Below are positions 1 to 63,182 of a stretch of 64,000 nucleotides of DNA, one piece after another. The position numbers and the translations under genes were made by a program. The stretch's first letter is position 1, and every line of letters begins with the position of its first letter. The notes below the pieces were generated by a model that saw nothing but the letters and a program-made list of their open reading frames with translations, was not told the DNA's origin and searched no databases. The stretch is from Candidatus Kuenenbacteria bacterium (GTDB taxonomy: Bacteria > Patescibacteriota > Patescibacteriia > UBA11705 > JABHMO01). The stretch spans positions 72,566 to 136,565 of the forward strand of contig JABMRF010000007.1 of assembly GCA_013202715.1 (NCBI GenBank). Direction: 5' to 3'.

Positions 1-446
1 TTATCCCTCTTTTTCGAGGAGGAACGGCTGATCTAAATACGACTTTGGCTCTCTCTCTAGTATCTGTGATTGTGGCTAATATTTTTGGTATGGTATCCGT
101 GGGTACATTCAAGCATCTTAATAAGTTTATTAATCTAAAAGCATTGGCCCAAATTCCCGTAAAATTCAGAAAAGATCCAACCATTATTGTGGTGAATCCA
201 ATCAAGTTTTTTGTCGGTCTGATTGAAATAATAGGTGAGATTGCCAAGGTTGCTTCATTGTCGTTTCGTTTATTTGGAAATGTTTTTGCCGGTGAAGTTT
301 TGCTCACGTCAATTGCTGTAATCTTTGCATTTGGACTACCGATTCCGTTTATGTTTTTGGAAATAATTGTCGGAATAATTCAAGCCTTGATATTTGCTAT
401 GCTCAGTTTAGTTTATTTTTCAATAGCTATGAGTGAAGAACATTAA
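1..446 (+). CDS. atpB: F0F1 ATP synthase subunit a, C-terminal part. The ORF is open to the window start (reading frame from nt 3).
   Basis: Hydrophobic C-terminal helices with the conserved LFGNVFAGEV stator motif; followed by atpE-F-H-A-G-D-C in canonical order. Confidence 0.85.
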   Translation, partial: IPLFRGGTADLNTTLALSLVSVIVANIFGMVSVGTFKHLNKFINLKALAQIPVKFRKDPTIIVVNPIKFFVGLIEIIGEIAKVASLSFRLFGNVFAGEVLLTSIAVIFAFGLPIPFMFLEIIVGIIQALIFAMLSLVYFSIAMSEEH

Positions 447-505
447 TTAATTAATAATATAGTTAACTTGATAACGACTTTAAAAACAACATTCCAGTCG
501 ATTAG

Positions 506-736
<231 letters not shown>

Positions 737-803
737 TATTTTTGTTCTGCCTCGATATTTGTTCATCGAGGTAGACTCAAGAATATTAATCCCTAATAGA
801 AAT

Positions 804-1316
804 ATGGATGATTTAATAAAAACATTTTTCATTGATTGGCGTCTTCTTATCGCTCAAGTTATTAACTTTACAATTGTTATTGTGGTTTTGGGTGTCTTTG
901 CTTTGAAGCCATTGGTAAAATTAATGAAAGAAAGAGAAGAAAAAATTAGCAAAGGAATCACTGACGCAGAAAAAATTGAAGAGAAAATAAAGCAAATAGA
1001 AGTAGAAAAAGAACAAGAAATAAAAAAAGGAAGACAGGAAGCCCAAACAATCATTGTCAAGGCAGAAAAACAAGGCGATGAAGTGCGGATTGAAAAAACA
1101 GCCAAAGCGCAAAAAGAAGTTGAAAAAGTTATTGCAGATGCGCGCGCTCAAATCAGATCCGAGAGAACCTTGATGGTTAAGGATGTCAAAGATGAGCTTG
1201 GCGGGTTAATTTCTCTTGCGCTCGACAAGATCGTTTCCGGATCAATTGACGAAAAACAGCACAAAAAATTAATAGAAAAAGCAATTGCGGATTTAAAAGG
1301 AGCGGAGCTTCAATAA
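804..1316 (+). CDS. atpF: F0F1 ATP synthase subunit b
   Basis: N-terminal TM helix then a long charged coiled coil (E/K/A-rich), between atpE and atpH. The ATG at 804 is in frame inside the 717 ORF. Confidence 0.8.
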   Translation: MDDLIKTFFIDWRLLIAQVINFTIVIVVLGVFALKPLVKLMKEREEKISKGITDAEKIEEKIKQIEVEKEQEIKKGRQEAQTIIVKAEKQGDEVRIEKTAKAQKEVEKVIADARAQIRSERTLMVKDVKDELGGLISLALDKIVSGSIDEKQHKKLIEKAIADLKGAELQ

Positions 1317-1318
1317 TT

Positions 1319-1858
1319 ATGAAAATTGCCAAGATAAAACATTACGCAAAATCACTCATAGAGATTGGACAAGGACACAATTGCTTTGAGGAAATTGTTG
1401 ACCAACTGAAAAACGTGGAAGAAAAACTTGCGGAAAATCCGGATTTCAAAAAGTATTTACTAAATAAACGAGTTGGTTTTATAAAAAAAAGAGAAGCGTT
1501 AGAGCACGTTTTTCAGGATTTTTTGAGCAAAAGGACATATAACTTTTTGTATTTATTGATTAAAAATAATAAATTAGTCAATCTTTCCGATATACTGAAC
1601 GAAACGAACAAGGTTAATCTTAAAAATAACAAAATTAAGGAAGTCTTGGTGGAGTCAGTCATTCCTTTGCCATCTGAAATAGAAAAAACAATTAAAAAAA
1701 TAATTGAGAAAAAAATTAACTCGGAAATTATTTTGCGCAATATTATCAATCAGGCGCTTCTCGGTGGGATGAAAATAACGATCGGAGATACGGTAATTGA
1801 TGGTAGTCTGTTCGGCAAGATTTCTAGGTTGCAGAGAAAAATGGAAAATTATGAATAA
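1319..1858 (+). CDS. atpH: F0F1 ATP synthase subunit delta (OSCP)
   Basis: Size, operon position and a C-terminal LLGGMKITIGDTVIDGSL-type motif typical of delta/OSCP. Confidence 0.8.
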   Translation: MKIAKIKHYAKSLIEIGQGHNCFEEIVDQLKNVEEKLAENPDFKKYLLNKRVGFIKKREALEHVFQDFLSKRTYNFLYLLIKNNKLVNLSDILNETNKVNLKNNKIKEVLVESVIPLPSEIEKTIKKIIEKKINSEIILRNIINQALLGGMKITIGDTVIDGSLFGKISRLQRKMENYE

Positions 1859-1892
1859 ATATATAAAATACTAATTGTTAAATAACTATATT

Positions 1893-3425
1893 ATGTCGAA
1901 AAATAAAGATTTTGTAATCGAGAGTCTAAAAAAACAAATAACAGACTTTGATGACCACGTGGCTGTTGATAAAACAGGGCATGTAGTTGAAGTGGGTGAC
2001 GGTATAGCAAAGATTACCGGCCTTGCCGAAGTTATGTCCGCGGAAATGCTTGATTTTGGTGATAACGTTTTTGGCGTTGCCTTGAATTTGGAAGAGGATT
2101 TGGTTGGAGCCATGATTTTGGGTGATTATCTCAAAATTAAAGAGGGGACGGTTGTAAAAAGTACAGGAAGAATTTTGCAGGTTCCTGTGGGAGAGGGGAT
2201 GATTGGCCGAGTTGTAGATCCTCTTGGCGCACCAATCGATGGCAAGGGAAAGATTGAGGCTGCAAAACATTATCCAATTGAAAAAATAGCGCCTGGAGTT
2301 ATTACTCGAAAATCGGTACACGTACCGGTTCAGACCGGAATTAAAGCGATTGACTCAATGATTCCAATCGGTCGTGGACAACGTGAATTGATTATTGGTG
2401 ACAGACAAACAGGAAAAACCGCCATTGCTATTGATACGATTATCAATCAAAAAGGCAAAGATTTGCTTTGTGTTTACGTCGCTATTGGTCAAAAAGAATC
2501 GAAGATCGCTAAAATCGTTGCGAAGTTGGAAGCCGAAGGAGCAATGGACCACACGATCATTGTTGTTGCAGGAGCTTCAATGCCTGCATCACTTAGTTAT
2601 ATTGCACCGCAAGCCGGTTGTGCTATGGCAGAATATTTTATGGACCAAGGTAAGGATGTTCTGATTGTTTATGATGATTTGTCTAAGCACGCTGTAGCTT
2701 ATCGAGAAATTTCACTTTTATTGAAACGGCCACCAGGTCGAGAAGCTTATCCGGGTGATGTGTTTTATTTGCATTCACGGCTTTTGGAACGCTCAGCTAA
2801 TTTGAATGAGGATTTTGGTGGCGGATCAATTACCGCTCTCCCAATTATCGAAACTCAAGCTGGAGATATTTCAGCATATATTCCAACAAATGTGATTTCC
2901 ATTACTGATGGTCAAATCTTTTTGGAAAGTGATCTGTTTTATCAGGGAATTCGCCCGGCTGTAAATGTTGGTTTGTCAGTTTCTCGTGTTGGATCCAGCG
3001 CCCAGATCAAAGCTATGAAAAAAGTGGCTGGAAAATTACGCTTGGAAGTTGCTCAATATCGAGAACTGGCTGCCTTTGCTCAATTTGGGTCTGATCTTGA
3101 CGATGCAACCCAAAAGCAATTGGAAACCGGTAAGCGTATTACAGAAATTCTAAAGCAAGGCCAGTATCAACCGGTAGAAGTGGAAAAACAGGTTATTATA
3201 ATTTACTCAGTTATTAATGGACTGCTTGATGATATTCAGGTGGAAAAAGTTAGTGAGTTTGAAAAGGGCTTGTATAAATATTTTGATAATAGCGCAAAAA
3301 ATGTTTTGTTGGAACTAAAGAAAAAAGGTGTTATGGATGAAAAACTGGAAAAAGATATCATCAAAATTGTGAATGAATACAAAGGAACGGTTGAGGAAAT
3401 GTTATTGAAACCAGAAAAAGAATAA
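1893..3425 (+). CDS. atpA: F0F1 ATP synthase subunit alpha
   Basis: Walker A GDRQTGKT and alpha-specific blocks ([46 protein letters not shown]). Confidence 0.95.
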
Positions 3426-3426
3426 T

Positions 3427-4386
3427 ATGGCAAAAGGCACAAGAGAAATAAAACGTCGATTGAAATCGGTCGGCAATACCCGCAAAATCACAAAAGCCAT
3501 GGAAATGGTTGCTGCAGCAAAAATGAGAAAGGCTGTTGATTCGGTTTTAGCGACTCGTGACTACGCCAATCTGGCCTGGGCAACGGTTTTGAATTTGTCT
3601 GAAAGAACTGATCAAGAGAAACACGTGCTTTTGGCCAAGAGAGACAAAGTAGAAAATGTTGCTTTGATTTTGATCGGTTCCAATCGGGGTTTGTGTGGAG
3701 GATTTAATCTTCAGGTTGTCCAAAAAGCCATAGCTTCAATAAAAAAACATGAAAAAAATATCAAAAACACAGAAGTGATTACACTTGGAGGAAAATCCAG
3801 AGATATTATTAAAGGGCTTGGTTATAATATTGTGGCTGATTTTGTAAAGGAAGATTTAACCACAAATTCTGATGAGGTTGCACCAATTGCGTCTATGATT
3901 ATAAAAGATTTTATAACGGGTAAATATGACAAAGTATTTGTCGCCTTTACTGACTTTGAATCAAGTATGAAACAGACTGCGAGAGTAAAGCAATTGTTGC
4001 CGATCGAATCTGAACCAGATGACTATCTTGGTGTCGTAGGTAAAAGTGATGGTGCGGGAGTGGGTACCAGAAAAGAATTTATTGACGAGAAAAGAGAAAA
4101 GTATTTGATCAAGGGAAAGTTTCAGTACGAGTATATATTTGAGCCAAGTGCAGAAGAAGTACTTGAGGAAATGCTTCCTCGTTTAATAGAAGTTCAGGTT
4201 TATCAAGCGGTGCTAGAATCAGATGCGTCTGAGCATAGTGCGCGCATGATCGCAATGAAAAATGCATCTGACGCTGCAGAGGATATGATTGATGACCTTA
4301 CATTATCGTTCAATCAAGCTAGGCAGGCCACGATTACTCAGGAAATTGCTGAGATCAGTTCCGGCGCCGTAGCATTGGGTAATTAA
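3427..4386 (+). CDS. atpG: F0F1 ATP synthase subunit gamma
   Basis: N-terminal MAKGTREIKRRLKSVGNTRKITKAMEMVAAAKMRKA, and a C-terminal AEISSGA..LG gamma-type helix. Confidence 0.9.
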   Translation: MAKGTREIKRRLKSVGNTRKITKAMEMVAAAKMRKAVDSVLATRDYANLAWATVLNLSERTDQEKHVLLAKRDKVENVALILIGSNRGLCGGFNLQVVQKAIASIKKHEKNIKNTEVITLGGKSRDIIKGLGYNIVADFVKEDLTTNSDEVAPIASMIIKDFITGKYDKVFVAFTDFESSMKQTARVKQLLPIESEPDDYLGVVGKSDGAGVGTRKEFIDEKREKYLIKGKFQYEYIFEPSAEEVLEEMLPRLIEVQVYQAVLESDASEHSARMIAMKNASDAAEDMIDDLTLSFNQARQATITQEIAEISSGAVALGN

Positions 4387-4426
4387 TTTGAAAATAATTT
4401 TTAATTTTATATATTTAAAACTTTAA

Positions 4427-5806
<1,380 letters not shown>

Positions 5807-5817
5807 AACCAGTTTAC

Positions 5818-6264
5818 ATGAAAATAAATTTTAAAATTGCTACACCTGAGCGAGTTGTGTTCAAGGATGACATAGATTCTGTCACCGTTCCCACTCAGAT
5901 GGGTGAAATTACGATCTTACCAAATCATATTCCATTGATTTCTATTTTGGTTGCCGGTGAAATTACGATTCGAAATGGTGAGGAGACGATAGCAATGTCT
6001 GTTGCAGGTGGTTTCCTCGAAGTTTTATCCACAAAGGTGGTGGTTTTGGCGGACAGGGCAGAGCGATCAGAAGAAATTGATGTAGAACGCGCAACAGAGG
6101 CCATGAAGAGGGCAAATGAACTTCGTGAGGAAAAAGCCGTTGATTCCCGTGAGTTTGCAGCTCTCAGTGCACAAATAGAAAAAGAGATGGCTCGAATCAG
6201 AGTCGGTCGAAAACATTCACGTCGAGTAGAACAACGTGGTTTTAATGTGAAAAAATATAAATAA
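5818..6264 (+). CDS. atpC: F0F1 ATP synthase subunit epsilon
   Basis: 148 aa with a beta-sandwich N-terminus and helical C-terminus, last gene of the operon. Confidence 0.85.
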   Translation: MKINFKIATPERVVFKDDIDSVTVPTQMGEITILPNHIPLISILVAGEITIRNGEETIAMSVAGGFLEVLSTKVVVLADRAERSEEIDVERATEAMKRANELREEKAVDSREFAALSAQIEKEMARIRVGRKHSRRVEQRGFNVKKYK

Positions 6265-6375
6265 CTCGGTTTCGTTATTCGTCTATAAGCTAACACCTAA
6301 CGCCTTCCGCCTACCAGTTATAACCTATAAACTAACAACCTAACAAGCTAACTTCCTAATTAGATATCTAACCTT

Positions 6376-6786
6376 ATGGCACACACATGTAATAATTTTT
6401 TAATGACCTGTATTGATTTCCGTTTTCACAGCGCAATTACAGATTGGGCTGAAAAGCAGGGGATTACGAAGGATTTTGATTTGGTGGCAATTGCTGGAGT
6501 TCAAAAAGCTATTTTGGATGACGATACTAGGAATGCCGCTATAAAACAACTGCACATTTCGGTCCGACTTCACAAGACAAGAACAGCAATTTTAATTGCC
6601 CATCAGGATTGCGGAGCATACGGTGGAAGTTCAGCCTTTGCCAACTGGGACGAAGAAAAAGCAAAATATACAGAAGACTTAAACGAAGCTGAAAAAGTCA
6701 TCAAAGAAAAATTCCCAGAACTGCAGGTCAAGAAGATGATTTTGACTTTTGATGAAAATGAAAAAGTTGAGATTATTGAAGTTTAA
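6376..6786 (+). CDS. Compact beta-carbonic-anhydrase-like zinc protein (paralog A)
   Basis: CIDFR and HQDCGAYGG match the beta-CA zinc-ligand and Asp-Arg dyad motifs (C-x-D-x-R ... H-x-x-C), closest to minimal Cab-type beta-CAs, but only 136 aa. Confidence 0.5.
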   Translation: MAHTCNNFLMTCIDFRFHSAITDWAEKQGITKDFDLVAIAGVQKAILDDDTRNAAIKQLHISVRLHKTRTAILIAHQDCGAYGGSSAFANWDEEKAKYTEDLNEAEKVIKEKFPELQVKKMILTFDENEKVEIIEV

Positions 6787-6810
6787 TTTGAAAATTAATT
6801 TGATATAAAA

Positions 6811-6857
6811 AAATCCCCCGTCTCGAGTTGATCGAGAGGCGGGGGTGTTTTTGTTTT
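6811..6857. terminator. Bidirectional rho-independent terminator between convergent genes
   Basis: cccccgtctcgagttgatcgagaggcggggg hairpin with an A-run before and a T-run after. Confidence 0.7.
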
Positions 6858-7335
6858 AGCGCATGAATGGATTTCTGCCGGGGCACATTCTCTCAGTGAG
6901 AATTTCATCAGCCATCTCCCTAAGTTCAAGAGAGTCGGCCTTGAATCGAATGAGTTTCAGTGTCTCGGTGTCTTTATTTACTAATTTTCGTGCTAACATC
7001 TTCGCCTCAATCGTAGAGCGAATCTCAGGACCGCCATCTTTCCAGAGCAGGAACTGCTTGATTCGGAGCGCATCGATAACCTCGTCAGAATTCATCTTCG
7101 TTTCCAAGTCAGCCTTGAGATGATCCAGTTTTCTCCATGCGTTTGGCATGGCATTGTCAAGCGCTCTTCGCGCAGGGTGCTTGTGACGGAGAATCTTCCA
7201 AAGGTTGTAAAGCTCCATTGGAGTATGTTCTTTTGATTCAACAACTTCGAGTGGCTTTGCAGCCATCACAACCTCGATTTGGAAATCGGTGAAATCGCCT
7301 TTAGCTTTTAATCTTTCTTTTGTGGTAAGTATCAT
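6856..7335 (-). CDS. Hypothetical cytoplasmic protein, divergent partner of the secreted nuclease
   Basis: ORF with an AAGGAGG RBS 5 nt upstream of the ATG at 7335; ~45% GC; no recognisable motif. Confidence 0.45.
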   Translation of the reverse strand: MILTTKERLKAKGDFTDFQIEVVMAAKPLEVVESKEHTPMELYNLWKILRHKHPARRALDNAMPNAWRKLDHLKADLETKMNSDEVIDALRIKQFLLWKDGGPEIRSTIEAKMLARKLVNKDTETLKLIRFKADSLELREMADEILTERMCPGRNPFMR

Positions 7336-7431
7336 TCTTCCTCCTTTTGTGAACGATTTACAATGAATCACTGCAATGCTGTATCTTAGCAGAGCCTAAT
7401 ATTTTTGTCAAGAGTTCGTTACAGATATTCC

Positions 7432-7460
7432 TTGACAAGCGTTTTGATTATGCTAAAATT
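7432..7460 (+). promoter_or_regulatory. Sigma70-type promoter (TTGACA-17-TGcTAAAAT) for the nuclease gene
   Basis: Exact -35 hexamer with an extended -10. Confidence 0.6.
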
Positions 7461-7509
7461 ATATTAATTTAGTTTGTCGATATCTAAAGATTCAACAAAG
7501 GAGGATGTC

Positions 7510-8109
7510 ATGAAAAGATTGGTTTTAATCGGATTGGCAACATTGACAGGACTTGTTCTTTTGGAAATGTTTGTTTTTGGTCCTGTTAATGAATGTTATG
7601 GTGGAGAAAGTGATACAAAGGGAGAAGGTTTTAAAATTGTTGAATTAATCGATTGCTCCGGCGATAAGTTTAGCCCTGATGATGGCGATTCGTTTTACTG
7701 CGTGATAAATGATAAAAAGGTTTTTGTCCGTGTCTTGGGAATTGATACTCCGGAGACAATGCATGAAGAGCATGGAATTTGCGAAAATCAAAAGCTGGGA
7801 CCTGAGGCAACTAAGTTTGCCAATAATATTTTGATGAATGCAAAAAACATTACACTTGTTCACAAAGTCGGTGATGTCGGATCTTACGGCAGACCATTGG
7901 TTCACGTCCTGGTTGACGGTAAATTGTTTGCGCCGATGCTGGTTAAAGCCGGCCTGGCTTATTCAACATTGGAACACTATGGCGATAACGGATTTTCCGG
8001 TTACGCGGCTGAGATTAATCACGTTTGGGCGAACATGACACCTCCTGAATTTGAAAATCCTCATAAGTTTCGGAAAAAGATGCGAGAAAAGTGTCCGCAA
8101 CCGGAATAA
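7510..8109 (+). CDS. Secreted or membrane-anchored thermonuclease (staphylococcal-nuclease-like)
   Basis: N-terminal signal/TM segment; VRVLGIDTPE matches the SNase R-L-x-G-I-D-x-PE calcium/active-site motif. Confidence 0.65.
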   Translation: MKRLVLIGLATLTGLVLLEMFVFGPVNECYGGESDTKGEGFKIVELIDCSGDKFSPDDGDSFYCVINDKKVFVRVLGIDTPETMHEEHGICENQKLGPEATKFANNILMNAKNITLVHKVGDVGSYGRPLVHVLVDGKLFAPMLVKAGLAYSTLEHYGDNGFSGYAAEINHVWANMTPPEFENPHKFRKKMREKCPQPE

Positions 8110-8167
8110 ATTAGTTTTCCCTGTATGTTACACTACATCCAGGGATTTTATTTTATCATTTTGCGCA

Positions 8168-8196
8168 TTGACAAGCTTTTTGGGGCGTGCTATTAT
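8168..8196 (+). promoter_or_regulatory. Sigma70-type promoter (TTGACA-17-TGcTATTAT)
   Basis: Consensus -35 and extended -10 about 35 nt upstream of the ATG at 8232. Confidence 0.55.
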
Positions 8197-8231
8197 CTCT
8201 CAAGTGTCACGGTTCTTTTTACGGAGGCAAA

Positions 8232-8672
8232 ATGTCACATAATTGTTCCGCTGTGATTATCACTTGTATGGATTTTCGGACTCAGCCTGCACTGCATAGG
8301 TTTATGAAAGAAAATGGCCTCATTGGTGATGCTGATGTACTATCATTTCCTGGTGGACCACAGCTTTTGGCCAATGATTTTAACAGAAACAGCAAATTTG
8401 CGTCCGAGATGGCGCTCCTGTCAGTTGGACTTCACAGTGTCAGGACGGTCTACTTGATTGCTCATGATGATTGTATGGCCTATGGCGGATCAGATGCATT
8501 CAAATCCAGAGCAGTTGAAAGAGAAGCATACATGACGGATCTCGTCGACGCTGCGGCTGAGATCAGGAGTTTAGCACCGAAACTTAATCTTGAGATTGTT
8601 TACAAGATTATTGTGATGGACGGCGATGGCTGGGTGGTGATCAATTTTACAGAGGGTGATCTCAATCCCTAA
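8232..8672 (+). CDS. Compact beta-carbonic-anhydrase-like zinc protein (paralog B)
   Basis: CMDFR ... HDDCMAYGG; ~40% identical to paralog A across the C-terminal half; GC ~45%, higher than paralog A. Confidence 0.5.
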   Translation: MSHNCSAVIITCMDFRTQPALHRFMKENGLIGDADVLSFPGGPQLLANDFNRNSKFASEMALLSVGLHSVRTVYLIAHDDCMAYGGSDAFKSRAVEREAYMTDLVDAAAEIRSLAPKLNLEIVYKIIVMDGDGWVVINFTEGDLNP

Positions 8673-8823
8673 GAAAGTAACTCTAGGTGGACAAATCCAC
8701 TTGGAGTTTTTTATTTTATAAAATAGTGTTATAATATGTATATTAAGAATATAAAGAGGTCTTCATAAGTCTAAATAATGCTTCGAATATACTTCTTTCG
8801 CCCTCTTTCGCCTTATTAATTTT

Positions 8824-9321
8824 ATGATAACGCTTGATTACATTTTACTTGGTTTAATTTTGGTAATTGCTTTTTTGGGCTACAAAAAAGGGTTTTTGGA
8901 ATCACTCGGTTCCATAATCGGAATTATTGCGGCCGTAATTGTGGCCGGTCGTTATTTCCCAAATGTAGCCGTCTGGTTTGGCGGTACAAATTTTTCTAAT
9001 ATTATTGCCTTCATTGTAATTTTCAGTTTAACAATAAAAATTGTCAGTTTACTGTTCTGGGTTCTGGGGAAAGTATTTAAAATTGTTACCGTTTTGCCAT
9101 TTATTTCCAGCTTTGATCGTTTACTTGGATTAATTCTTGGTTTTGTGGAGGGAATATTTGTCATGTCAATTATTTTGTATTTTATATTAAAATATCCTCT
9201 GAACGATTGGCTGATGTGGCAGATGTCAATTTCTGCGGTTGCAAAAGTTTTATTGACCGTCGGAAATATTTTTGTCCCTCTTTTTCCTGATGCGCTAAAT
9301 GCGGTGAAGTCGTTTATGTAA
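8824..9321 (+). CDS. cvpA: CvpA-family membrane protein (colicin V production protein-like)
   Basis: 165 aa with 4 TM helices and a CvpA-like helix arrangement (GLILVIAFLGYKKGFL ..., LLGLILGFVEG). Confidence 0.6.
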   Translation: MITLDYILLGLILVIAFLGYKKGFLESLGSIIGIIAAVIVAGRYFPNVAVWFGGTNFSNIIAFIVIFSLTIKIVSLLFWVLGKVFKIVTVLPFISSFDRLLGLILGFVEGIFVMSIILYFILKYPLNDWLMWQMSISAVAKVLLTVGNIFVPLFPDALNAVKSFM

Positions 9322-12736: not shown

Positions 12737-13363
12737 CTACAGGTTGAGCTGCAACCGGAAAAGGAACATGTTCGTTTCCTTGTCCGCTGGCGAAATGTCG
12801 TAACCCAGCCAGAACATTGCCGAACCGGCGGAAATTCCTCCTCCGAATGCGGCTTCGAACCAGTCATCTTCACTGAGGAAATGTTCTGTGAAGAGGCCGA
12901 CGCCCCATTTCTCGAAATTGTACATGAGGGTCGAGAGGATGTAGTACTGCCTGAACGTGTGCTCTCCATCTCCCTCTGTCGAGAGAGGAAAGTAAACGTC
13001 GCCTTCCAGGAAGAACAGCAGTTCATCAAGGCCGAGTGTCTGTTCCATCCAGACTGAGGCCAGCGCGCTCGTGCCACCGTCAGGTGACATGAATGTGCCA
13101 CCGAGTAGCCAGAGAGTTGTCTTCGGTAGACTCAGCTTCGGCCCTACGTAGGTGAAAAGCATCGGAGTCATGGTTCCGAAGTCCATCAGCGCCGTTCCGT
13201 GTACGTAACAGCTGAGATGTGCACTTTTGCTGAGCTCCGCATCGCCGATGTCCCTGCCGACGGCGATCATCAGTTGCCCGGTGGTCGTGTGCTCCTCGGC
13301 AAGAACTGACGACGAGAGACAGATCAGACAAAGAACAAACGTGAACAGTTGCAGTTTTCGCAT
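12737..13363 (-). CDS. Secreted protein of atypical composition (~53% GC), possibly a small beta-barrel
   Basis: Signal peptide MRKLQLFTFVLCLICLSSSVLA; alternating hydrophobic pattern; C-terminal FRLQLNL; GC far above the genome background. Confidence 0.5.
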   Translation of the reverse strand: MRKLQLFTFVLCLICLSSSVLAEEHTTTGQLMIAVGRDIGDAELSKSAHLSCYVHGTALMDFGTMTPMLFTYVGPKLSLPKTTLWLLGGTFMSPDGGTSALASVWMEQTLGLDELLFFLEGDVYFPLSTEGDGEHTFRQYYILSTLMYNFEKWGVGLFTEHFLSEDDWFEAAFGGGISAGSAMFWLGYDISPADKETNMFLFRLQLNL

Positions 13364-34910: not shown

Positions 34911-35390
34911 ATGTATCCCTTTGATCTCGAACTTTTAATCACTCTTTTGTGCAACTCTAAATTTTGGTGCGACAGACTTACGGATATCAACCTCGATAGA
35001 GTGTTTCCCGACTGGAACTTCATGGGAAGTGGGGGAGGGGCACATCCGATTGGCACAATCGACAACCACTGGAACTATGACGTAGTTGGATTTGAGAGAT
35101 GGAGACTGATCGTCTTTTGTCTCAAGTTCATCGCCCAGGGTGAGACACTTCAGCTCCCATACGAGCTTCTCCCACTGTGGTACCCAGATCGACCGGTACC
35201 CATCTGGAAAGTCCACCCAGACGGCCAGATCTCTATCCGTGGGCCACTGCCACCGTTACACGATCTGCAGCTTACCCTGGAGCCCTTTCAACTGAACCCG
35301 AAGTTGGGTATCTGTATATCCAACAGAGCGAAGTTTCTCCTCATCGAGGAAAGAATAGCCGCTCCTAGTGAATTTCCACTCTCTCTATGA
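34911..35390 (+). CDS. Hypothetical protein (~50% GC)
   Basis: AAGGAG RBS; 159 aa, W/P-rich. Confidence 0.45.
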   Translation: MYPFDLELLITLLCNSKFWCDRLTDINLDRVFPDWNFMGSGGGAHPIGTIDNHWNYDVVGFERWRLIVFCLKFIAQGETLQLPYELLPLWYPDRPVPIWKVHPDGQISIRGPLPPLHDLQLTLEPFQLNPKLGICISNRAKFLLIEERIAAPSEFPLSL

Positions 35391-37669: not shown

Positions 37670-40600
37670 ATGAAAAAAATCGCAAAAAACAAAATCTTTA
37701 CAGGGTTCATTGCTATGACAACAATTGTCTGGGCAATGGGTTTGGCTGGAGTTCTTACTCCCCTACTTCCCGCTCAGGCAGCAGTTACGGTTGCAACGGA
37801 AAACAGAATCTATTCGTCCTGGGATATGAGTGGCGGAATGATGAGTGATGTTGCAGCTTTTAAAGTTACTGCTGATTCTGGAGAAACATTGAATTCTATC
37901 AATGTCCGATTTAACAGCACTTATGGTACTGCAACTCCAGCTGCAATGCTTTCGGCTTTTAATGTGGCTGGTCAAGAAGGAGCAACTGACGTCCAAGGAT
38001 TGTCTATTTACAAAGATTCTAATGCAAATGGCTGGTTTGATCCGGGCGGAGGTGATATCGTAGTACCTTGGGAAGTTCAACCAACTTGGACTGATAATGG
38101 AAACGGTACGTTTGATACCTCCCTGAATATTGTTGATGATACTTTACCTACAAGTTATGCCGGTGATTGGAACTATTTTTTACATATGCAAATGGCCGCG
38201 TCCCCTGATGCAGGCAAATCATTTAAGTTTCAATTTGGTGCTGGCGCTGGTGGAGCAATTGTAACTTCTGGAACATCACCAAGTATTACTGCATTTGAAA
38301 CAAATTCAATTAATAGTAGTGGTGGTGGTGGTGGTGATTATACAGTTTCTCCTCGAATTACTGATATATTTTTCAAGAGTCCCACTTCATTAGTCCTAGA
38401 TTTTGATATGGACATGGATACTACTTCAGTAAACTGTAATGAAGTCCTTATTCCGGGTAGTTGTTCCAGTAAATATACTTTGTTTACTAGAGATGGTGCT
38501 GATAATCAAACAATTATTACTGCTGTCCGTGGAGTTGTTGGGGACAATACTATGGTAACTTTGACAGCACACGCTAATGCCAGAATAGGTTTGTCATCAC
38601 AGGATTATTTAGTTGTTAGTACTGATCCAGCACAGGCACCTAGAGATGCAACGAATGGTATGAGTTATAATGAGGACGGAGTGATTAATTTCCATATAAA
38701 CAACGGAAGTGCTGTTATTTCAGAAATTAAAATTGGTGGATCCGCTACCACGGATGAATTTATCGAGTTATATATAACAGATTCCGGTGGATCGGTCGAT
38801 TTGGATGGGTATAAAGTAACAGCATTGGTTTCAAATGTATATGTTACATTGGCAACGTTAGGACCAACCTCTTTAGATACTGGTAAGCATTATTTATTGG
38901 CAAATAAGGCAAATGATTATAATATGGCAGTAGATGGAGTTGCTATGTTGGCCGATTTTAACTTTTCCGGCGTGGACTTAGCAGATAATGATACTATTAT
39001 TTTAGTTGACAACAACGGTGTTGTTATTGATTTGGTTGGCTTTGGTGCAGCTGCCACGATTTATCAGGGTTACTCTCCGGCAGATTCTCCGGCTCCGAAT
39101 GGTTCAATTGAAAGAAAGGCTGTATATTCCTCTACTGGTCAGTCTATGTCAGAAGCAGATGTAGACGGTGGAAATGGTTATAATAGTTTGGATAATGGGT
39201 ATGATTTTGTGAGTAGAAACGTACTTGACTCTGATCCACAACCATCAACAGCCACAGCAGAAAGTTCCGGTATGCTGGAAGATGATTATGTAAATAGCAC
39301 TCCAACAATAGAACATATGCCTATTGCTATGGCAATAGCCGGACAAAGTATAACAATAGATGCCTATATTTACGATGTAGAAAATTCTTTTAATGCATTA
39401 ATAACAAAGCAATTGTGTTACAAAGCTCCAAATGGATCTTGGCCAGGAACTTGTGTGACCGGTACAGACGAAGGACAAAATAGAGTAGAGTTTTATATCC
39501 CAGCTTCAGAAGTCACTATAAGTGGGCTTAATTACTATATTGAAGTTATTGATTCAGGGACTTTTGCGGCTTATGCCTCTTCTAATCCTACGTCCACAAC
39601 CGCTGTCATGGCAAAATTAAGTCCTTTTTTAATAAATATTTCCGCTATTGCTGGCTCCAGGATGATTAGTGGTACAGTTTATCAAAGCGATTGCATAACA
39701 CCAATTTATAATGCGAATGTTTATGTGAAAGGCACAGGACTCAGTTCTATTAGTTCCGCTTCCGGTGTTTTCACAATTACCGGAGTTTCGGACGGAACAT
39801 ACAATTTAGAAGCAACAGCAAGTGGATATCTTTCCAGTGAAATTTGGGGAGCGTCTGTAGGTGTTAATAATCCAAATTCATCGGGCTGGGTATTTTGTCT
39901 ATCGTCAGGAACAGCTGGGCAAGGTGGGGATTCTGAAGCACCGCAGGTGATTATGTCAATGCCAGGTGATGGAATGATGGGAGCTCCAATTGATATAGTT
40001 ATTGATCGCGCTCCGATGTTTTTTATGCTTGATAAGGAAATTGATATGACCACCGTAAGCTGTACAGACTGTGATGCCGCTACAGATAATATTAAGTTGA
40101 AAAAGGTCAGCGGAGGTTCTATTACTAACATTACAGATTACAATGTTAGTTTCGATACTGGTCTGGGTGCAGCCAGTAGAGGGCAAACAGTCCAATTCGG
40201 AGGTAGTACTTCTAATCCTGTAATTGTTATTGATAAAGTTGCACTTTTGGAAATAGGAACAGATTATATAATTGAAATTACACCAGGGGTGAAAGATATG
40301 GCTGGTAATCCTCTTGAGGGAAACCGACCTGGTGGCGGACATACCATATCGTTTACTACTCAATCAACCAGTAATAATTTTAGTGGTAGTTCTGGGTTTG
40401 ACTTTACTGAAGATGAAACTTTTTGGCAAACTGGTGATTTCTCCAGTATGACCGAGGACGCTGGATACGCTACAATGATGGGAAATTTTGATGCAGACAA
40501 GGGTATGTGGGCCGGAGGTGCATATAGCCCTCTGTATGTTTATGGCTCCCAACCATCTCCTGGTAGCTGGAATGTACCTACAAATTTAACAAAAATTGTT

Positions 40601-43600
40601 ATAGAGTTTAGCGAACCAATTGATACCAATAGTGTTAATAAAGGAGCTTTTAATTTGTACTCTGTCAGTGGCGGTGTTTATACAGATGTAACCAGTACTT
40701 CTATTGTGGATGCTATATTGAGTTCAAATAAGTTATATGTAATTATGGACATTAATGGTACTTTGCCTGTTGGTGAATATGAAATAAGAGTCAAGGGTGG
40801 AGTCAGATCAATGTCAGGCATTACACTCGGCGATCCAAATAATCCGGGAAATGATCATTACATGTCAAATTTTACTGTTACCAATACAACTGATGTAACT
40901 GCCCCTACAATGAATGGTAGTTGGCCTGAAAATAATGATATGTCAGTACCAATGGACTTTGGCTTTATTGATATAGGATTTGCTGAAGCATTGGATCCAA
41001 CTAATATTAACACTACAAATGTCACTTTGAAAACTGGAACATCAACTGTGCCGACCAATGTTGAATACGATGCGATGAGACAGTCAATCAAAATTATACC
41101 TACTACCGGTTTGACTCCAGGTGTAGCATATACTGCAACTATTAGTTTTGGCGCTTCTGCCATTCAAGATTTAGCAGGATTACCCATGGATCTATCTGGA
41201 CTTCTACTCACATTCAAAATGACTACAACGGCAGATAGTACTCAGCCTGTGCTTGAGTTTGCGAATTGTGATAGCTATAGTTGTGCAATCACTTTTAATA
41301 AAGGCATGAGCGCACTCAAGCAAAGTGAAGCTTCATCAAACGCTAACCTTTGGACTGGCAGTGTGAGAAATCCGGCCAACTATGCTTTGACTTTTGGTCC
41401 AGGTGGAACTGATACCGTAGAAAGTCTTACGGCCAGTGGTGTGTCCTTTAATTATGAATATGATACCAATACCGTATTGGTTGAAGGATTATCATTTACA
41501 GGCTTAAATGCAGATACAGATAAATTTGTTTTAACAGTAACCAATGTATTAGATCTTTCAAATAATCCAATCAACACTAGTGCCAATACAGCCGGTGGAT
41601 ATATTATGGATTCATCCAAGTCCGGCGGTATGATGGGACCTGGTGGTGGTGGATTTATGGGAGGTGGTATGATGGGTGGCGGAATAATGACCGGTGGCCC
41701 AAGCGGATTTGGTGGATTTGGTGCCAAAGAAGCTATGATGATGGGCGCAGGTGTGATGCCAATGAATATGACAGCCGGCGCAACTACTACATACTTTATT
41801 GACTTCCCTATGCCTCCATCAGGTGGAACTGCTAATAAACTTGATGATGGTTCATATTTTAAATTGACCTTTCCAAAGGGAACTACTTTGACTGGTGCAA
41901 TTCCAGATCCATACAATCCAAGTAAGACTGATCTTAATATGAATGGTGATGCAGTGGTTGTTCTGTCTGAATCTGGAATCGCTGCAGATTCAGTTGCTGC
42001 AACTCAGGCTGGTGCTATCAATGATGGAGTTACAGTTTCAGGTCAAACTATGACCTTGTGGTTAGATACAAATAGCGGAACAACTAGTGATCCAGATATG
42101 TTCCACTTTGAAGTCAAGGGCATTGTAAATCCAAAGGCTCAGGATTTTAATTCTTCAGGATATACAGTAGATATGAAAGCATATAATAGTGGCGGTACAT
42201 TGATAGAATCTATGACTTCTATGCCGTACTTTATAAATGCCGCGGGGTCAAATAATATTACGATTAATGTAACTGCTGAAGATGGTCTTGGTGATATGAC
42301 TTTGATGATGGGATCACCAATGTCCGGTCCAATGGACGCAGATGTATCTCTCATGGCTGGTGTGGGAACTCAAACTTGGTCAAATTTGAATGATGGTTGT
42401 TATCATATTTTTACTGAGCCAACAATTACTCTTGGTATATATAAATATTCAGGTCAGATGAATCCGGAACCGATTTGTTTGCCGGGTTCCGGCGCAAACT
42501 GGACTGAAGCTACGAGTACATTAACCAAAGCACTTACCTTTACAAAACGTAGCGCTGCTAATTCAGCTCAGCTAGCAGTATTAGTCAGTGGTACCTTTGC
42601 AGACGCCGGTGAAGACGTAGATATTTTTGCTTTTGGCCCAAATGGTGGAACCGTTGAAACTGTGACTTTTGGCGGTGAAGTTGTAAATAATTCCACTACC
42701 CTCTTTCTTCCATCCAATGGTGATTACAATATTGGTATCGGTCCGGCAATGCCAAAGGGTCCGATGGCCGGTCCCCCACCAATGCCTGATTGGATGCCAC
42801 CTATGACAACTGCGATCACTGTCAGTGGTGTCGGTGGAACTCCGGTAATTAAACGAAACGACACCAATGCTACTATTACTGAATTACCTATATCAATTAC
42901 CAGCGCTACAAAAGAAATTCGTGGACTGGTGGTCTCCAAGGGAACAACTATAGGTGCAAGTTATACTGCAGCTGCGACAAGTCTAACCTTAACCAGTGGA
43001 AGTGGCTTTGCGGAAAATGACTTTATTTATATATCTGATGGAACAAATACCGCTACTGATAAGATTCTGTCTATCAGTGGTACAACTGTGCAATTAACCA
43101 GTGGAATGGGTACATCCTTTGCTTCTGGTAGCGCAGTCTATAACATCATTCCTGACACTGAATTATGGGCTAATCAGCCAATGGGCTTTGGTGGTATGGG
43201 ATCTCACGCAACTTCACAAGCTGATGGTTCATTTGTGTTAAAAGTTGCTTCAAATGGTACTTATGATATTGGTGCTTGGAAGTCAGGAATTGGTGATGCT
43301 CCTTCTAGTTCGGCAACTGTCAAAGATAATAATGGTGGTACAGTAGATGGAAATAGTACAGCCGACGTTAAGGTTAATGGAGCTAACATTACTACTGTAA
43401 ACCCGTTCCTAATAAAAATAGGTAGACCAGATTATGTAATCTCTGGGCGAGCTATTGATTCCAGTAATAATCCAATGCAATATACTCATGTGATGGCAGA
43501 AGAAACTACAACTCGCCAAATGGCACATTCAAATACAGATTCAGATGGTGATTATATCCTCAATGTTAGTGCAGGTACCTGGAGTATTCAGGTAGATACA

Positions 43601-50438: not shown

Positions 50439-50571
50439 CTGTATCAATTGGTTCTTTGAAAAATCGCTTGAGTACAACAGAAAGACCTTATTTACAATTA
50501 TCTATTGTATGTAGCGTCTTTTTGTTGTGTCGAGAGTCAACAATTTTTCAAAACCTTAATTGGAGGAAAGC

Positions 50572-52281
50572 ATGAAGAACGGAGAAAAGACGCTGAATGG
50601 AATCGTTGGTCTGTACAAGGAGTTTGGTCCCGACCTTCCGGTCGTGACCATCCAGGGAGTGCAGGTTGTCCGTCTGCCCAGCACCGTGACGGTGCTGGCG
50701 GACATGAAGGACGAGACGGTCCTCCAGCCCCTCAACCAGGCGAGGATTTTCCACGCCACTGACAGGCAGGGACAGTTTTTCCTGCTCCTCACCGAGGATG
50801 GCGCTGCCAAGATGGCATCGCTCATCGCAGAGGACCGGAACACCCGGGGTGAGGTTCTGACCGTGGCCGACGGCTACACCAAGTTCGTCACCTACACGGT
50901 GGCCATGGCAGCGGCAGCCGCCGCAGCCAAAGCCAAGAAGGCGGCAGCGGAAGCCAAGTCCCAGGCCAAGGCAGCAGCCACAGCCAAGCGGCTCGAGTCT
51001 TACAAGCTCATGGACCTGATCCGGTTCGGGCAGAGGGACTGCGTCCTCCTGCCCTCGGACGAGGTGGCGGAGATCCCGCTGCTAAAGGTCAAGCCCCTCC
51101 TGGGGACCATGGCTTCGTTCGTGAGGACCAAGCTGGAGGCAGTGGCCGAGCAGTACGAGGCCGACTACTCAACAGCTATCGCCGAGGCGCAGAAGGACAA
51201 GCCCTTCGCGCACGGCGGAGAGCTGGTCGACTGGGAGCGGGAGTTCCGTGCCCAGTGGGCTGACAAGAATGGCAAGTCCGCCCCGACGATGTGGGGTATG
51301 ACGGTTCTTCTCAGAAACTTCGACGATTACGGCGAGTTCGCCATGATCATCCGGTCGGATGACAAGGAGGCCATTCTGGGTCTCACCGGTTCGAGGTTGA
51401 TCTCTATGGGCGAGCCCATGCACTGGAGGCTCCGGAAGAAGTACTTCTTCGATCCGCGCGCAAAGGCGGCAGAAGAGGCGCGGAAGCTGGAGGCCAAGCT
51501 GGCTCGGGAAGCCAGGGCCAAGGAATCAGCGGAAAAGCTGCAGACCAAGGTCGAGGCCATGAAGGCCACCGGCAAGAACTTCCACACGTGTCAGGGCGAT
51601 ACCGTCTGGACACCTGTGGAATCCTTCGTGCGGATGTCCATGGACGATCTCGTCGTCTGCCCCGTCCTGGGGGAGATGAGCGAGGATGACGTCCTGGCCT
51701 GTATGGACGAGAAGTTCGTCGATGCGTACGAGTCCGCTCTGGACCAGGCGCAGAAGGCCGGCCCTCTCGGCGTGAAGGACTACTTCTCGTTCGAGGGGAA
51801 GTTCCGGAACGAGTATGCGAAGTCCAGCGGTGGTGCCACTCCCGGACTGGCGGACTTCGTCGTGGTGACGCGATACTTCCGTCGGGAAGGCGTGTGTTGC
51901 GCGGTCGTTCACAGGGACGATCTCGCGGCATTCAAGGCCATCGCGGGCAAGGGGACGAACCCCAACACCCGGGAGACCTACGAAGTTCCTCTTCGGGATC
52001 ACAGTGATCCCTTCTGGTGGATGCTCCGAAAGGAGCACTTCTTCGATCCCCTTTCCCAGCGAAAGGATCAGGAGAGGCAGGCAGAAGAAGAGGTCGTCGC
52101 GGTCCGGAAAGAACAGACGTTCGACCAGATGGGTGATCTCATCGGCGCTGAGCGACTGAAGGAGATGCGCGCATCGTTGGCTTCGGCCGACGAGGTCATC
52201 GATGATCACAAGTCTGCCGGCCGGCAGAAGTGGGACCGCCGGAAGAACGGTGGCGGCAAGAACCGCGGCAAGCGCGGCTAG
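50572..52281 (+). CDS. Hypothetical protein of foreign composition (~60% GC) with internal duplication, poly-Ala/Lys segments and a K/R/G-rich tail
   Basis: GGAGGA RBS; repeated P(M/F)xW(R/M)LRK(K/E)(Y/H)FFDP motif at two positions; AMAAAAAAAKAKKAAAEAK; C-terminal KWDRRKNGGGKNRGKRG. Confidence 0.6.
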   Translation: MKNGEKTLNGIVGLYKEFGPDLPVVTIQGVQVVRLPSTVTVLADMKDETVLQPLNQARIFHATDRQGQFFLLLTEDGAAKMASLIAEDRNTRGEVLTVADGYTKFVTYTVAMAAAAAAAKAKKAAAEAKSQAKAAATAKRLESYKLMDLIRFGQRDCVLLPSDEVAEIPLLKVKPLLGTMASFVRTKLEAVAEQYEADYSTAIAEAQKDKPFAHGGELVDWEREFRAQWADKNGKSAPTMWGMTVLLRNFDDYGEFAMIIRSDDKEAILGLTGSRLISMGEPMHWRLRKKYFFDPRAKAAEEARKLEAKLAREARAKESAEKLQTKVEAMKATGKNFHTCQGDTVWTPVESFVRMSMDDLVVCPVLGEMSEDDVLACMDEKFVDAYESALDQAQKAGPLGVKDYFSFEGKFRNEYAKSSGGATPGLADFVVVTRYFRREGVCCAVVHRDDLAAFKAIAGKGTNPNTRETYEVPLRDHSDPFWWMLRKEHFFDPLSQRKDQERQAEEEVVAVRKEQTFDQMGDLIGAERLKEMRASLASADEVIDDHKSAGRQKWDRRKNGGGKNRGKRG

Positions 52282-61533: not shown

Positions 61534-61658
61534 GCTACTTAAACAAGTTCCTTTCAAAGTATCGAAAACTGTGTGTTTCAGTGGACCCCTCCGGGTCTGT
61601 CTGTGGTTAGGGTTTGCATGTGCAAGCCCATCTGTTTGTTAACCGTATGGAGGTAGAG

Positions 61659-63182
61659 ATGACAGTAGATCGAGGAAGTATCGTTTCAGCTGAAGTGCTC
61701 AGAATGCTCATGTCCTCACCGGGCGAAGATGAAGAACTCAGCGGTGAGATTGTCAGCATTGGAGCCAAAGACTTTGCGTTCATTGGGAATGTGAAGGACT
61801 CACGGGGCCGGCCGGTTGATACCGGCGCTGGCGATGTGTTTCTTCACCAGGAGGAACTCCTTGGTGGAAAAATGGAAGTTGGGACGGTCCTGAAGTTCAG
61901 GGTTGTTCCCGATGAGAGGAGACTCGGTAAACTGCGAGCGCTTCAGGCGCACTCAGTCGATCTGGCTCTGGTGCCGGTGAAAAAGGAAGTTGTGTTTCCG
62001 GTGTCAGTCGTTACCGGCGCACAGTCGTTCTACCACGTGCGTGCCAAGAAGATTCTGCCGGAAATCGTTGACCAGGCTGACAACAACAAGCCGTTTGACG
62101 GTGTCTTCCGACCGACTTCCCAGGCAGATGCGATCAAGATTGCGAACCGAGATGTCCTGGCCGACGTGATCAACGTTTGGCTGAAGGCGAGCTTCGCGAT
62201 GTTCGAGAGCTTCGGTGTGAACTTCGATCTGCGCCAGCCAGTGACGGATGAAGAGCGGGACATGATCGAAAAGTACGCCCAGTCGTTTGGCAATGGTGGC
62301 ATGGATGCTGCAGCTCGGAAGCTCAAGCAGCAGTTCGAGACGTTCTTGAACACCAAGGATGTCTTCAACTACCTGTACAATTCAAATCGCCTCCTGCCCC
62401 AGAGCGTACTCAGTGTTGACTACCTGCCTGACATGATGATGGCCGCGCCGGTCTGGTTCGCACGAGGGAAAGAGGAATTCCCCAACAAACAGGATAGACA
62501 CGATCCAATGCCGGACGAGTTTGTTCAGTACATGTGCGGACTGGGCAAAACCCAGCGCATGGCAAACCTGATGCAGCTTTTCAATCGGCGCACACGGCCG
62601 TTTGACATGTATGAGGGAGACGTGATTCCTCCTCATATCTGGGAGACGATCCAGGCCTGCTCAAACAGAGACAACCTGTTGTCAAAGTTCGATTACCTGG
62701 TGATTGCCACTCCGTATCACAACATTGCCAGCAAGGAATGGGCTGATCCCAACTGGCAGGGCATGATTGATCCTTACCTGCTTGCATTCTCAAAGGATGT
62801 GCCTGAATTTTTCTTCGTGCTTGGTCGTTGGAGTGACACGGGGCTTCTGCCGCTAGTTAGCGAGATGACGGCCGATACCGTGAATTTCACGAGAGAGCAC
62901 CTTGAGGGAATTGAGAACTTTTCTCAGCCCTACTGGCACATTGAGGCTGGTGACAAAAAGGATAGTGATCCAGAGGATGATGAAGGGTCTCGGATTGCGG
63001 CTGATGGTACACATTATAATCAGAGTTTAAAAGACGGTGTTCCTGCTCCATATCTCAAGGATGGTTCATTGCCACAATTTGCCAGGGAATTGATCGAGCG
63101 TTTCGAAAAGGGTGACCTTTTCCCCTGGCTGACGGATGACACTTACACCGGAGAGCCGGATGAGACGACACCTGAAGGTTAA
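61659..63182 (+). CDS. Hypothetical protein of foreign composition (~58% GC) with an N-terminal cold-shock/S1-like OB domain
   Basis: GGAGGTAG RBS; N-terminal GEIVSIGAKDFAFIGNVKDSRGRPVDTGAGDVFLHQEEL...GTVLKFRVV parallels the CspA fold pattern (GxV..F...KGFGFI......DVFVH...L); about 400 aa of unknown domain follow. Confidence 0.55.
   Translation: MTVDRGSIVSAEVLRMLMSSPGEDEELSGEIVSIGAKDFAFIGNVKDSRGRPVDTGAGDVFLHQEELLGGKMEVGTVLKFRVVPDERRLGKLRALQAHSVDLALVPVKKEVVFPVSVVTGAQSFYHVRAKKILPEIVDQADNNKPFDGVFRPTSQADAIKIANRDVLADVINVWLKASFAMFESFGVNFDLRQPVTDEERDMIEKYAQSFGNGGMDAAARKLKQQFETFLNTKDVFNYLYNSNRLLPQSVLSVDYLPDMMMAAPVWFARGKEEFPNKQDRHDPMPDEFVQYMCGLGKTQRMANLMQLFNRRTRPFDMYEGDVIPPHIWETIQACSNRDNLLSKFDYLVIATPYHNIASKEWADPNWQGMIDPYLLAFSKDVPEFFFVLGRWSDTGLLPLVSEMTADTVNFTREHLEGIENFSQPYWHIEAGDKKDSDPEDDEGSRIAADGTHYNQSLKDGVPAPYLKDGSLPQFARELIERFEKGDLFPWLTDDTYTGEPDETTPEG

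Follow-up and report, generated by a model that had tools for sequence, protein, structure and literature searches.

The DNA analyzed here, called the window, is a stretch of 64,000 nucleotides (nt) from a Patescibacteria (candidate phyla radiation, CPR) genome, that of Candidatus Kuenenbacteria bacterium (GenBank assembly GCA_013202715.1, contig JABMRF010000007.1, positions 72,566 to 136,565 of the forward strand; identical database entries are HQ571_01260 and HQ571_01265). It contains a gene, named A in this text, for a very small protein related to the beta-carbonic anhydrases (beta-CAs) and belonging to the Pfam family Pro_CA_2. By its position A is the last gene of the F1Fo ATP-synthase (atp) operon, and this position is conserved, a feature absent from an earlier description of the same segment made from the letters alone, referred to below as the sequence-only reading. 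That description dealt with A, its paralog B, and two genes between them, one for a nuclease of the staphylococcal nuclease (SNase) family and one for a small protein, X. The explanation that accounts best for the whole segment, with a probability of about 0.6, is that A is a minimal zinc carbonic anhydrase encoded in the atp operon, B a diverged copy of it, the SNase homologue a surface nuclease, and X an orphan.

A conserved gene at the end of the atp operon

The operon and its last gene comprise the following features.

45-6264, + strand: F1Fo ATP-synthase operon, atpB (truncated by the window start) through atpC
524-736, + strand: atpE
717-1316, + strand: atpF
1319-1858, + strand: atpH
1875-3425, + strand: atpA
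3427-4386, + strand: atpG
4436-5806, + strand: atpD
5818-6264, + strand: atpC
6265-6375, + strand: spacer between atpC and A, 111 nt, G-poor, with six CTAAC motifs
6376-6786, + strand: A, 136 amino acids (aa), with CIDFR at residues 12-16 and HQDCG at 76-80
6800-6857, both strands: bidirectional intrinsic terminator, its GC-rich hairpin flanked by runs of A and T, predicted to end both the transcript of atp with A and that of X, which converges on it

All subunits of the operon score well over their Pfam thresholds, and AtpD and AtpC are 84-89% and 71-77% identical, respectively, to the Pfam-labelled genes of the closest relatives. The c subunit carries E56-A57 and no Gln in helix 1, a motif from which the enzyme appears to be an H+-type ATPase.

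The position of A was compared across 48 species-level loci with a family member, obtained by a scan of one genome per species. At 33 of the 48, the Pro_CA_2 gene comes directly after atpD and atpC and has their orientation, the median gap being 116 nt; 28 of these gaps measure 252 nt or less, and five measure about 820-863 nt and contain one intervening open reading frame (ORF). The linked loci, almost all of them from Patescibacteria, include records under the labels Saccharibacteria, Parcubacteria, Moranbacteria, Doudnabacteria, Falkowbacteria, Paceibacterota and Patescibacteria group, and orthologues of A with 61-74% identity occupy the same position after atpC. Furthermore, the order atpA-G-D-C followed by Pro_CA_2 was observed in all five further metagenome contigs with precomputed Pfam labels, in one of which an IS200 transposase is inserted in between. 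The genes downstream of Pro_CA_2 differ among lineages. At five of the loci that are not linked to atp, ten annotated neighbours were heterogeneous, including an amidohydrolase with a transporter, an LD-carboxypeptidase, a transaldolase, a NUDIX protein, an amino-acid kinase, a ComM-like ATPase, a Na/Ca exchanger and a HAD hydrolase; no neighbour recurs among these ten and they offer no functional clue, so that adjacency to atp is the sole recurrent association of the family. Such a conserved placement after atpC is, to our knowledge, undescribed for canonical beta-CAs. Literature searches found nothing relevant on a linkage of carbonic anhydrase and ATP synthase in CPR, and no paper describing the linkage of the atp operon with Pro_CA_2. 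At one locus (L043, 8450-13492) the Pro_CA_2 gene separates the atpD match from the atpC match and is oriented against them, an unusual interruption of an atp operon.

A is probably co-transcribed with the atp operon, because a pattern scan of the 111-nt spacer predicted neither a promoter nor a terminator; promoters in the window are matches of a consensus scan and are predictions only. No Shine-Dalgarno sequence was found in the spacer either. Its six CTAAC motifs fall within 83 nt, compared with 55 on the two strands of the entire window, and its RNA is less structured than that of shuffled sequences (z = +1.94). An Rfam scan of the whole window gave no matches, so the CTAAC-rich spacer corresponds to no known RNA element; it may serve as an unstructured leader for translation initiation. 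In relatives the spacer between atpC and the carbonic-anhydrase-like gene bears other short repeats, such as AAAGTCT (L008) and AAAGTT (L009). On the other side of A, the region 6800-6857 folds with -26.6 kcal/mol (z = -4.6), a stability reached by none of 200 shuffles; this terminator escaped the pattern scanner owing to its bulged stem.

The Pro_CA_2 family and the putative zinc site

The sequence-only reading had recognized in A and B two beta-CA-like proteins that keep the Cys-x-Asp-x-Arg and His-x-x-Cys motifs, and this was borne out by profile and alignment, and for A also by fold. Against the Pfam model PF20393 (Pro_CA_2, 'Putative carbonic anhydrase'), A scores 58.1 and B 54.5 bits at a gathering threshold of 30, both matches spanning nearly the whole 125-position model, and all listed homologues of A bear the same precomputed domain. 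By these scores A and B are members of an already catalogued Pfam family, in which A is typical and B atypical; the two are 36% identical (E 2e-27). In a family alignment of 95 sequences, used here for conservation and numbered by A, the residues D14, R16, D35, G41, H66, H76, C79, A81, Y82 and G83 are invariant and C12 is conserved in 99%, so that the two motifs are not a product of chance. All ten invariant residues are present in A and in B. The CxDxR and HxxC segments of the family profile align with those motifs of the beta-CAs in the PDB, and some Pro_CA_2 members bear a precomputed match to the canonical beta-CA family Pro_CA (PF00484).

Structure prediction for A, which the sequence-only reading had proposed as a check, gave a confident AlphaFold2 model (predicted local distance difference test, pLDDT, 96.1; predicted template-modelling score, pTM, 0.90). 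In the model C12 directly follows strand 1 (residues 7-11), while H76 closes strand 3 (70-76) and C79 lies there too. A Foldseek search of the PDB with this model returned beta-CAs as the top matches, led by Cab (1g5c; E 1.9e-4, probability 1.0, TM 0.58). C12, H76 and C79, the putative zinc ligands of A beside a D14-R16 dyad, are located as the ligands of beta-CAs are.

A shares the alpha/beta core of the Cab-type beta-CAs, represented by Methanobacterium thermoautotrophicum Cab (1g5c) and M. tuberculosis Rv1284 (1ylk), and the zinc motifs align. The differences lie in size and in additional residues. The Cab-type enzymes have 164-172 aa, whereas A and B have 136-146, and the segment of A after HxxC is short; only about six residues precede strand 1 of A, leaving no room for the N-terminal helices of the beta-CAs of about 210-220 aa. 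The earlier figure of a 30-40% reduction in size holds against these longer enzymes, but against the smallest solved ones, of 164-172 aa, the reduction is just about 15-20%. H3, D35 and H66 are additional conserved residues of Pro_CA_2 with respect to the Cab type. Outside Patescibacteria, a Geminocystis member (L051, 3393-3911) begins with a twin-arginine-like N-terminus, RRNFIK, and an Obscuribacterales member (L050, 9851-10474) with a hydrophobic Sec-like leader; these signal-peptide-like N-termini suggest exported forms of Pro_CA_2.

Proposed role of A and alternative explanations

In the proposed mechanism, A would be the ninth and last cistron of atpBEFHAGDC-A, read from the operon transcript and ending at the bidirectional terminator. 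Its product would be a stripped-down beta-CA fold with the catalytic core kept. Cys12, where strand 1 ends, would bind the zinc together with His76 and Cys79, where strand 3 ends, and the water on the zinc would be primed by the Asp14-Arg16 pair. The reaction would be CO2 + H2O <-> HCO3- + H+. Since A is kept directly after atpC phylum-wide, service to the H+-translocating ATPase is its most likely function in these fermentative cells: equilibration of cytoplasmic CO2 and bicarbonate could provide for proton supply or removal and for pH homeostasis. Alternatively, A may supply bicarbonate, a known activator of ATP hydrolysis by F1; carbonate is reported to activate hydrolysis by F-ATPase and to inhibit synthesis (PMC9583940). 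A is most likely a minimal zinc carbonic anhydrase co-expressed with the H+-ATPase.

Several points weigh against this assignment. With respect to the chemistry, A scores 16.4 bits (E 0.011) against PF00484, below the threshold of 25.7, and a scan of B with the same model gave no match. The family profile, compared with PDB sequences, matches only small beta-CAs, a CS2 hydrolase and a COS hydrolase, all weakly, and the structural match of A to beta-CAs is moderate (TM 0.5-0.6, root-mean-square deviation 6-8 Å). The conserved H3, D35 and H66 are without an assignable counterpart in beta-CAs and might point to a different chemistry, and a literature search returned no paper mentioning PF20393. 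With respect to the linkage, 15 of the 48 loci do not show it, and these take in most records from other phyla (Bacillota, Nitrospinota, Chloroflexia, Eisenbacteria, Obscuribacterales and the cyanobacterium Geminocystis). The 48 loci were retrieved through a single peptide pattern, HQDCGAYG, which biases the sample toward that motif. Co-transcription of A with atp is a prediction, drawn from a spacer without signals and a strong terminator 3' of A. Finally, uvrD too stays within 7 kb in different classes, and part of the atp linkage could be inherited gene order and not functional coupling.

Pro_CA_2 proteins might not be carbonic anhydrases at all; they might use the beta-CA-like zinc site to carry out another small-molecule reaction, COS or CS2 hydrolysis or some other, or bind to the ATP synthase as zinc-dependent factors with an accessory, assembly or regulatory role. 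The CS2 hydrolase (3ten) and the COS hydrolase (3vqj) have the same zinc-motif architecture and are reached by the family profile, at E 0.33 and 3, and H3, D35 and H66 are not part of the classic motif set of beta-CAs. However, these hydrolases are much larger (204-219 aa), their similarity to the family is weaker than that of true carbonic anhydrases, and neither the genomic context of Pro_CA_2 nor any neighbouring gene suggests a niche in sulfur-compound metabolism. An accessory function would agree with the strict position by atpC, which resembles that of accessory subunits, and with a zinc-less paralogue (described below) that persists beside an intact copy, as expected of a structural or partner role. 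Yet the members outside Patescibacteria stand away from atp, and the signal-peptide-like N-termini of some of them fit a free-standing enzyme; moreover, no fusion to an atp subunit was found among 149 homologues. The full beta-CA catalytic motif set is invariant, which argues for catalysis. A function other than that of a carbonic anhydrase is considered rather unlikely.

The second group of points bears on whether the adjacency means anything for function. The atp and carbonic-anhydrase genes might simply keep an inherited order in small, slowly rearranging genomes, A being a housekeeping carbonic anhydrase beside a hot spot of gene gain and loss. The presence of uvrD about 2-7 kb downstream in several classes fits this account, as do the extra ORF between atpC and the carbonic-anhydrase gene at five loci and the variable segment after A, which may hold a second copy, a nuclease, a 423-aa membrane protein, X or the IS200 transposase. 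Against it, the adjacency extends through all the named groups from Saccharibacteria to Paceibacterota while the genes downstream change, the gaps are short and on the same strand, and neither a promoter nor a terminator is predicted between atpC and A in the window. Mere inheritance of gene order is given a small share of the probability, and a carbonic anhydrase in the service of the ATPase is preferred.

Paralog B and the extra copies of the family

B lies downstream of A in a segment that extends to cvpA and includes the following features.

6856-7335, - strand: X, 159 aa, AGGAGG ahead of its ATG
7411-7383, - strand: predicted X promoter, TTGACA-17-TAAGAT, with extended -10 TG
7432-7459, + strand: predicted SNase promoter, TTGACA-16-TAAAAT, with extended -10 TG
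7510-8109, + strand: SNase homologue, 199 aa, ATG with GGAGGA upstream, containing VRVLGIDTPE
8168-8196, + strand: predicted B promoter, TTGACA-17-TATTAT
8232-8672, + strand: B, 146 aa, ATG behind GGAGG, with CMDFR at residues 12-16 and HDDCM at 78-82
8679-8708: terminator-like hairpin downstream of B, from the pattern scan
8824-9321, + strand: cvpA, Colicin_V family membrane protein (PF02674, 83 bits), the conserved downstream boundary of the segment

The four genes of the sequence-only reading are all present, with starts and lengths slightly off: B has 146 aa and not 147, X 159 and not 160. A start of B at GTG 8187 is probably too early, because all homologues begin M-S/A-H-x-C. For the nuclease a start at TTG 7474 was judged less likely, and ATG 7510 is preferred.

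In B, five positions with a conservation of at least 93% in the family are substituted (I13M, F17T, K44Q, Q77D and G80M), and among the 95 sequences it alone is without Gly after HxxC and without Phe after CxDxR. These substitutions suggest an altered activity or a role as a partner. B would be a fast-diverged extra copy under its own predicted promoter, the extended -35 region of which, TTGACAAGCKTTTTG (15 nt), is common to the predicted promoters of the nuclease (7432-7446) and of B (8168-8182), the repeat having 93% identity.

A xenologous origin of B had been proposed from its higher GC content. The GC difference is real (0.444 in B, 0.380 in A), but it amounts to z = +0.8 against 55 ORFs of the window (mean 0.397, standard deviation 0.058) and is weak evidence for import. 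A search for a donor among 5.8e9 proteins found no relative besides B itself, and BLASTP of B against the collected family members gave the A-type clade of its own lineage as the best match, at 36-43% identity. Because these nearest relatives are the local A-type clade, a diverged local duplicate is more likely than a distant import, and B is more likely an old local duplicate that diverged fast. Second copies in relatives are strongly GC-rich, with 0.560 against 0.405 in the surroundings at L007 (10544-10966) and 0.507 against 0.365 at L002 (4936-5418), and this is in favor of import; the best protein matches of these copies are nevertheless still in the local first-copy clade. In a rough neighbour-joining tree, B sits on a long branch and is not grouped with the second copies of relatives. 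An old transfer is a possible origin of B in view of this tree and of the GC-rich second copies.

Extra copies next to the first are frequent in the phylum; tandem ones of Pro_CA_2 occur at L002, L007, L010, L034, L039, L042 and L048. Furthermore, in a member of Saccharibacteria (L040, 10427-10831) a 134-aa homologue directly follows the intact gene (hhalign probability 95.6%, E 1e-8). It has lost Asp, Arg and His as well as the second Cys from the zinc site and is likely a pseudo-enzyme. An upstream 209-aa ORF at the same locus, considered as a third carbonic-anhydrase-like copy, was rejected (hhalign probability 0.6%).

The variable slot between A and cvpA

In the sequence-only reading the two carbonic-anhydrase-like genes bracket a unit made of the nuclease and X. 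Relatives with A orthologues of 61-69% identity show otherwise. The order atp operon, first copy (CA1), second copy (CA2), cvpA was observed at L002/L003, L007 and L010; the order atpC, CA1, SNase, cvpA, uvrD at L058; and the order atpC, CA1, a 423-aa membrane protein, a double-domain SNase, cvpA, uvrD in Falkowbacteria (L006/L008/L056/L057). The carbonic-anhydrase genes are thus in tandem (L002, L007) or A is followed by the nuclease (L058), and X is never there. Orthologues of cvpA with 57-77% identity come after CA, CA2 or SNase at L002, L006-L008, L010, L011, L055 and L058. The segment from A to cvpA is a variable slot, in which a second copy and/or the nuclease recur and X occurs only here. 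Repeats flanking X and the nuclease were looked for as scars of mobile elements, and no convincing ones were found. The 423-aa membrane protein of Falkowbacteria has two seemingly similar halves and no match in Pfam or PHROGs.

The SNase-family nuclease

The description of the nuclease as an SNase homologue was upheld, and the membrane anchor given to it there is a putative N-terminal anchor or signal. It scores 45.4 bits against PF00565 (cutoff 21), and its D60, R74, D79, T80, E82 and R128 align with D21, R35, D40, T41, E43 and R87 of the Staphylococcus aureus nuclease, completing the catalytic set. Its N-terminus has a hydrophobic stretch (Kyte-Doolittle 2.3 over residues 4-22; anchor or signal at about 4-24). 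With S. aureus Nuc it shares the Ca2+ ligands, the catalytic residues and an N-terminal export or anchor segment; in contrast to Nuc, it adds an N-terminal segment with a Cys pair (D-C-S-G ... Y-C) and a C-terminal F-E-N-P-H-x-(F/W)-R that is common to the Patescibacteria orthologues. It falls far below the NCBIfam NucI equivalog (42 against a cutoff of 250 bits).

Orthologues of the nuclease are found in the same slot in three other lineages (L006/L056/L057, L058 and L055). Their full-length identity to it is 44-51%, and they have the hydrophobic N-terminus, present in every full-length orthologue, the Cys pair and the C-terminal FENPH motif in common with it; Cys49 and Cys64 are invariant in seven orthologous nuclease domains. 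The Falkowbacteria orthologue at L006 (6356-7429), with 357 aa, consists of two SNase domains in tandem. These features fit a Ca2+-dependent nuclease that is exported or membrane-anchored, which would make it an outward-facing SNase of the slot between the carbonic anhydrase and cvpA. Organisms of the Patescibacteria type are generally reported to be without nucleotide synthesis, so that scavenging is the most economical role, and the enzyme probably degrades external nucleic acid for this purpose.

Protein X as an orphan of the slot

X and the nuclease are divergently transcribed, as had been noted, from predicted back-to-back promoters (7411-7383 on the - strand and 7432-7459 on the + strand) that match the consensus at 10 and 11 of 12 positions, both with an extended -10 TG. 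Their ribosome-binding contexts, TTCAMAAAGGAGGA, are near-identical and in mirror orientation (X 7339-7353, nuclease 7491-7505). A word-index search of 5.8e9 proteins found only X itself, and a full HMMER scan of 1.84e9 representatives added one relative (P0122; 34% identity, E 1.3e-7). This sole relative lies on a 766-bp contig without neighbours, so co-occurrence with the nuclease is testable from the nuclease side only. X had no match in Pfam, NCBIfam, PHROGs or PADLOC, and a PDB sequence profile gave no meaningful one. A structural model built on a two-sequence alignment is all-helical and moderately confident (pLDDT 72.6), and a Foldseek search of the PDB with it returned nothing below E 0.16. 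X is basic, with an isoelectric point (pI) of 9.18, whereas its sole homologue is acidic (pI 5.8). The 423-aa slot protein of Falkowbacteria was compared with X as a possible relative and is unrelated. X is a lineage-specific orphan that landed in the variable slot.

Two functional ideas were weighed for X. It could be a small DNA-binding regulator of the divergent nuclease gene, as the divergent promoters with -35 boxes about 20 bp apart and the basic, helical, cytoplasmic character of X would allow. However, no helix-turn-helix or other DNA-binding family was found in the Pfam and NCBIfam scans, the confidence of the model is moderate, the sole homologue is acidic, and orthologous nucleases elsewhere have no such neighbour; a regulator is improbable.

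The other idea is that of the sequence-only reading, in which the nuclease is secreted, X is its cognate cytoplasmic inhibitor or immunity protein, and the pair is bracketed by the carbonic-anhydrase-like genes, with B imported. X does adjoin the nuclease, the two having back-to-back predicted promoters and near-identical ribosome-binding contexts; it is without a signal peptide and predicted to be soluble and helical, and B and X are each about 5-7 GC points over A. That reading had named co-occurrence of X with SNase homologues as its own test, and as far as the data allow X is absent: at six other distinct nuclease-ortholog loci no X-like gene was found (0/6), and at L058 the nuclease directly follows the carbonic anhydrase. 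The comparison with inhibitor families that it also proposed gave no inhibitor or immunity match by library, PDB sequence or fold search, nor is X like any known defence or phage family. Barnase-barstar, colicin DNase-Im and NucA-NuiA resemble the present pair solely in that a nuclease gene adjoins the gene of a small cytoplasmic protein. These known pairs are operonic with an acidic inhibitor, whereas X is divergent from the nuclease and basic, does not co-occur with it across genomes, and has no likeness to their inhibitors in sequence or fold. Characterized nuclease inhibitors (barstar, colicin Im proteins, NuiA) are acidic, immunity genes are typically co-transcribed with the toxin, and SNase-type enzymes are exported and need millimolar Ca2+, which makes an inhibitor unnecessary; all three were counted against an immunity function. 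With a single remote homologue of X, a nuclease-immunity pairing is unsupported; B, for its part, is closest to the local A-type clade at a GC z of 0.8, and the model as a whole is very improbable.

Other features of the window

Elsewhere in the window, an ORF of 573 aa (50560-52281, + strand) has a GC content of 0.615 and 0.805 at third codon positions (GC3) in a window of 39.5% GC; it has two seemingly similar halves and no Pfam match. Other GC-rich ORFs without Pfam matches are located at 12737-13363 (- strand), 61614-63182 (+ strand) and 34911-35390 (+ strand). These GC-rich ORFs may be foreign or orphan genes. An ORF of 2880 aa (37670-46312, + strand) with CarboxypepD_reg, Big_5 and Lamin-tail domains probably encodes a surface protein.

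Implications for the ATP synthase of Patescibacteria

The main lead is that Pro_CA_2 is attached to the end of the atp operon in most sampled Patescibacteria, often with extra or degenerate copies. The protein of about 135 aa, with its putative activity, offers enzymology a near-minimal carbonic-anhydrase scaffold. A question for these reduced, fermentative and host-dependent organisms is whether their ATP synthase makes ATP or pumps protons, and the carbonic-anhydrase link may provide a handle on it, through buffering of pH and bicarbonate or through bicarbonate-activated hydrolysis. More tentatively, Pro_CA_2 might be a minimal carbonic anhydrase and a dedicated partner of the F1Fo ATPase, made together with it, using dead or divergent paralogues as dimer partners and setting the local availability of bicarbonate and protons. 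If so, it would control whether and how fast the ATPase hydrolyzes ATP to build up a membrane potential in cells without a respiratory chain.

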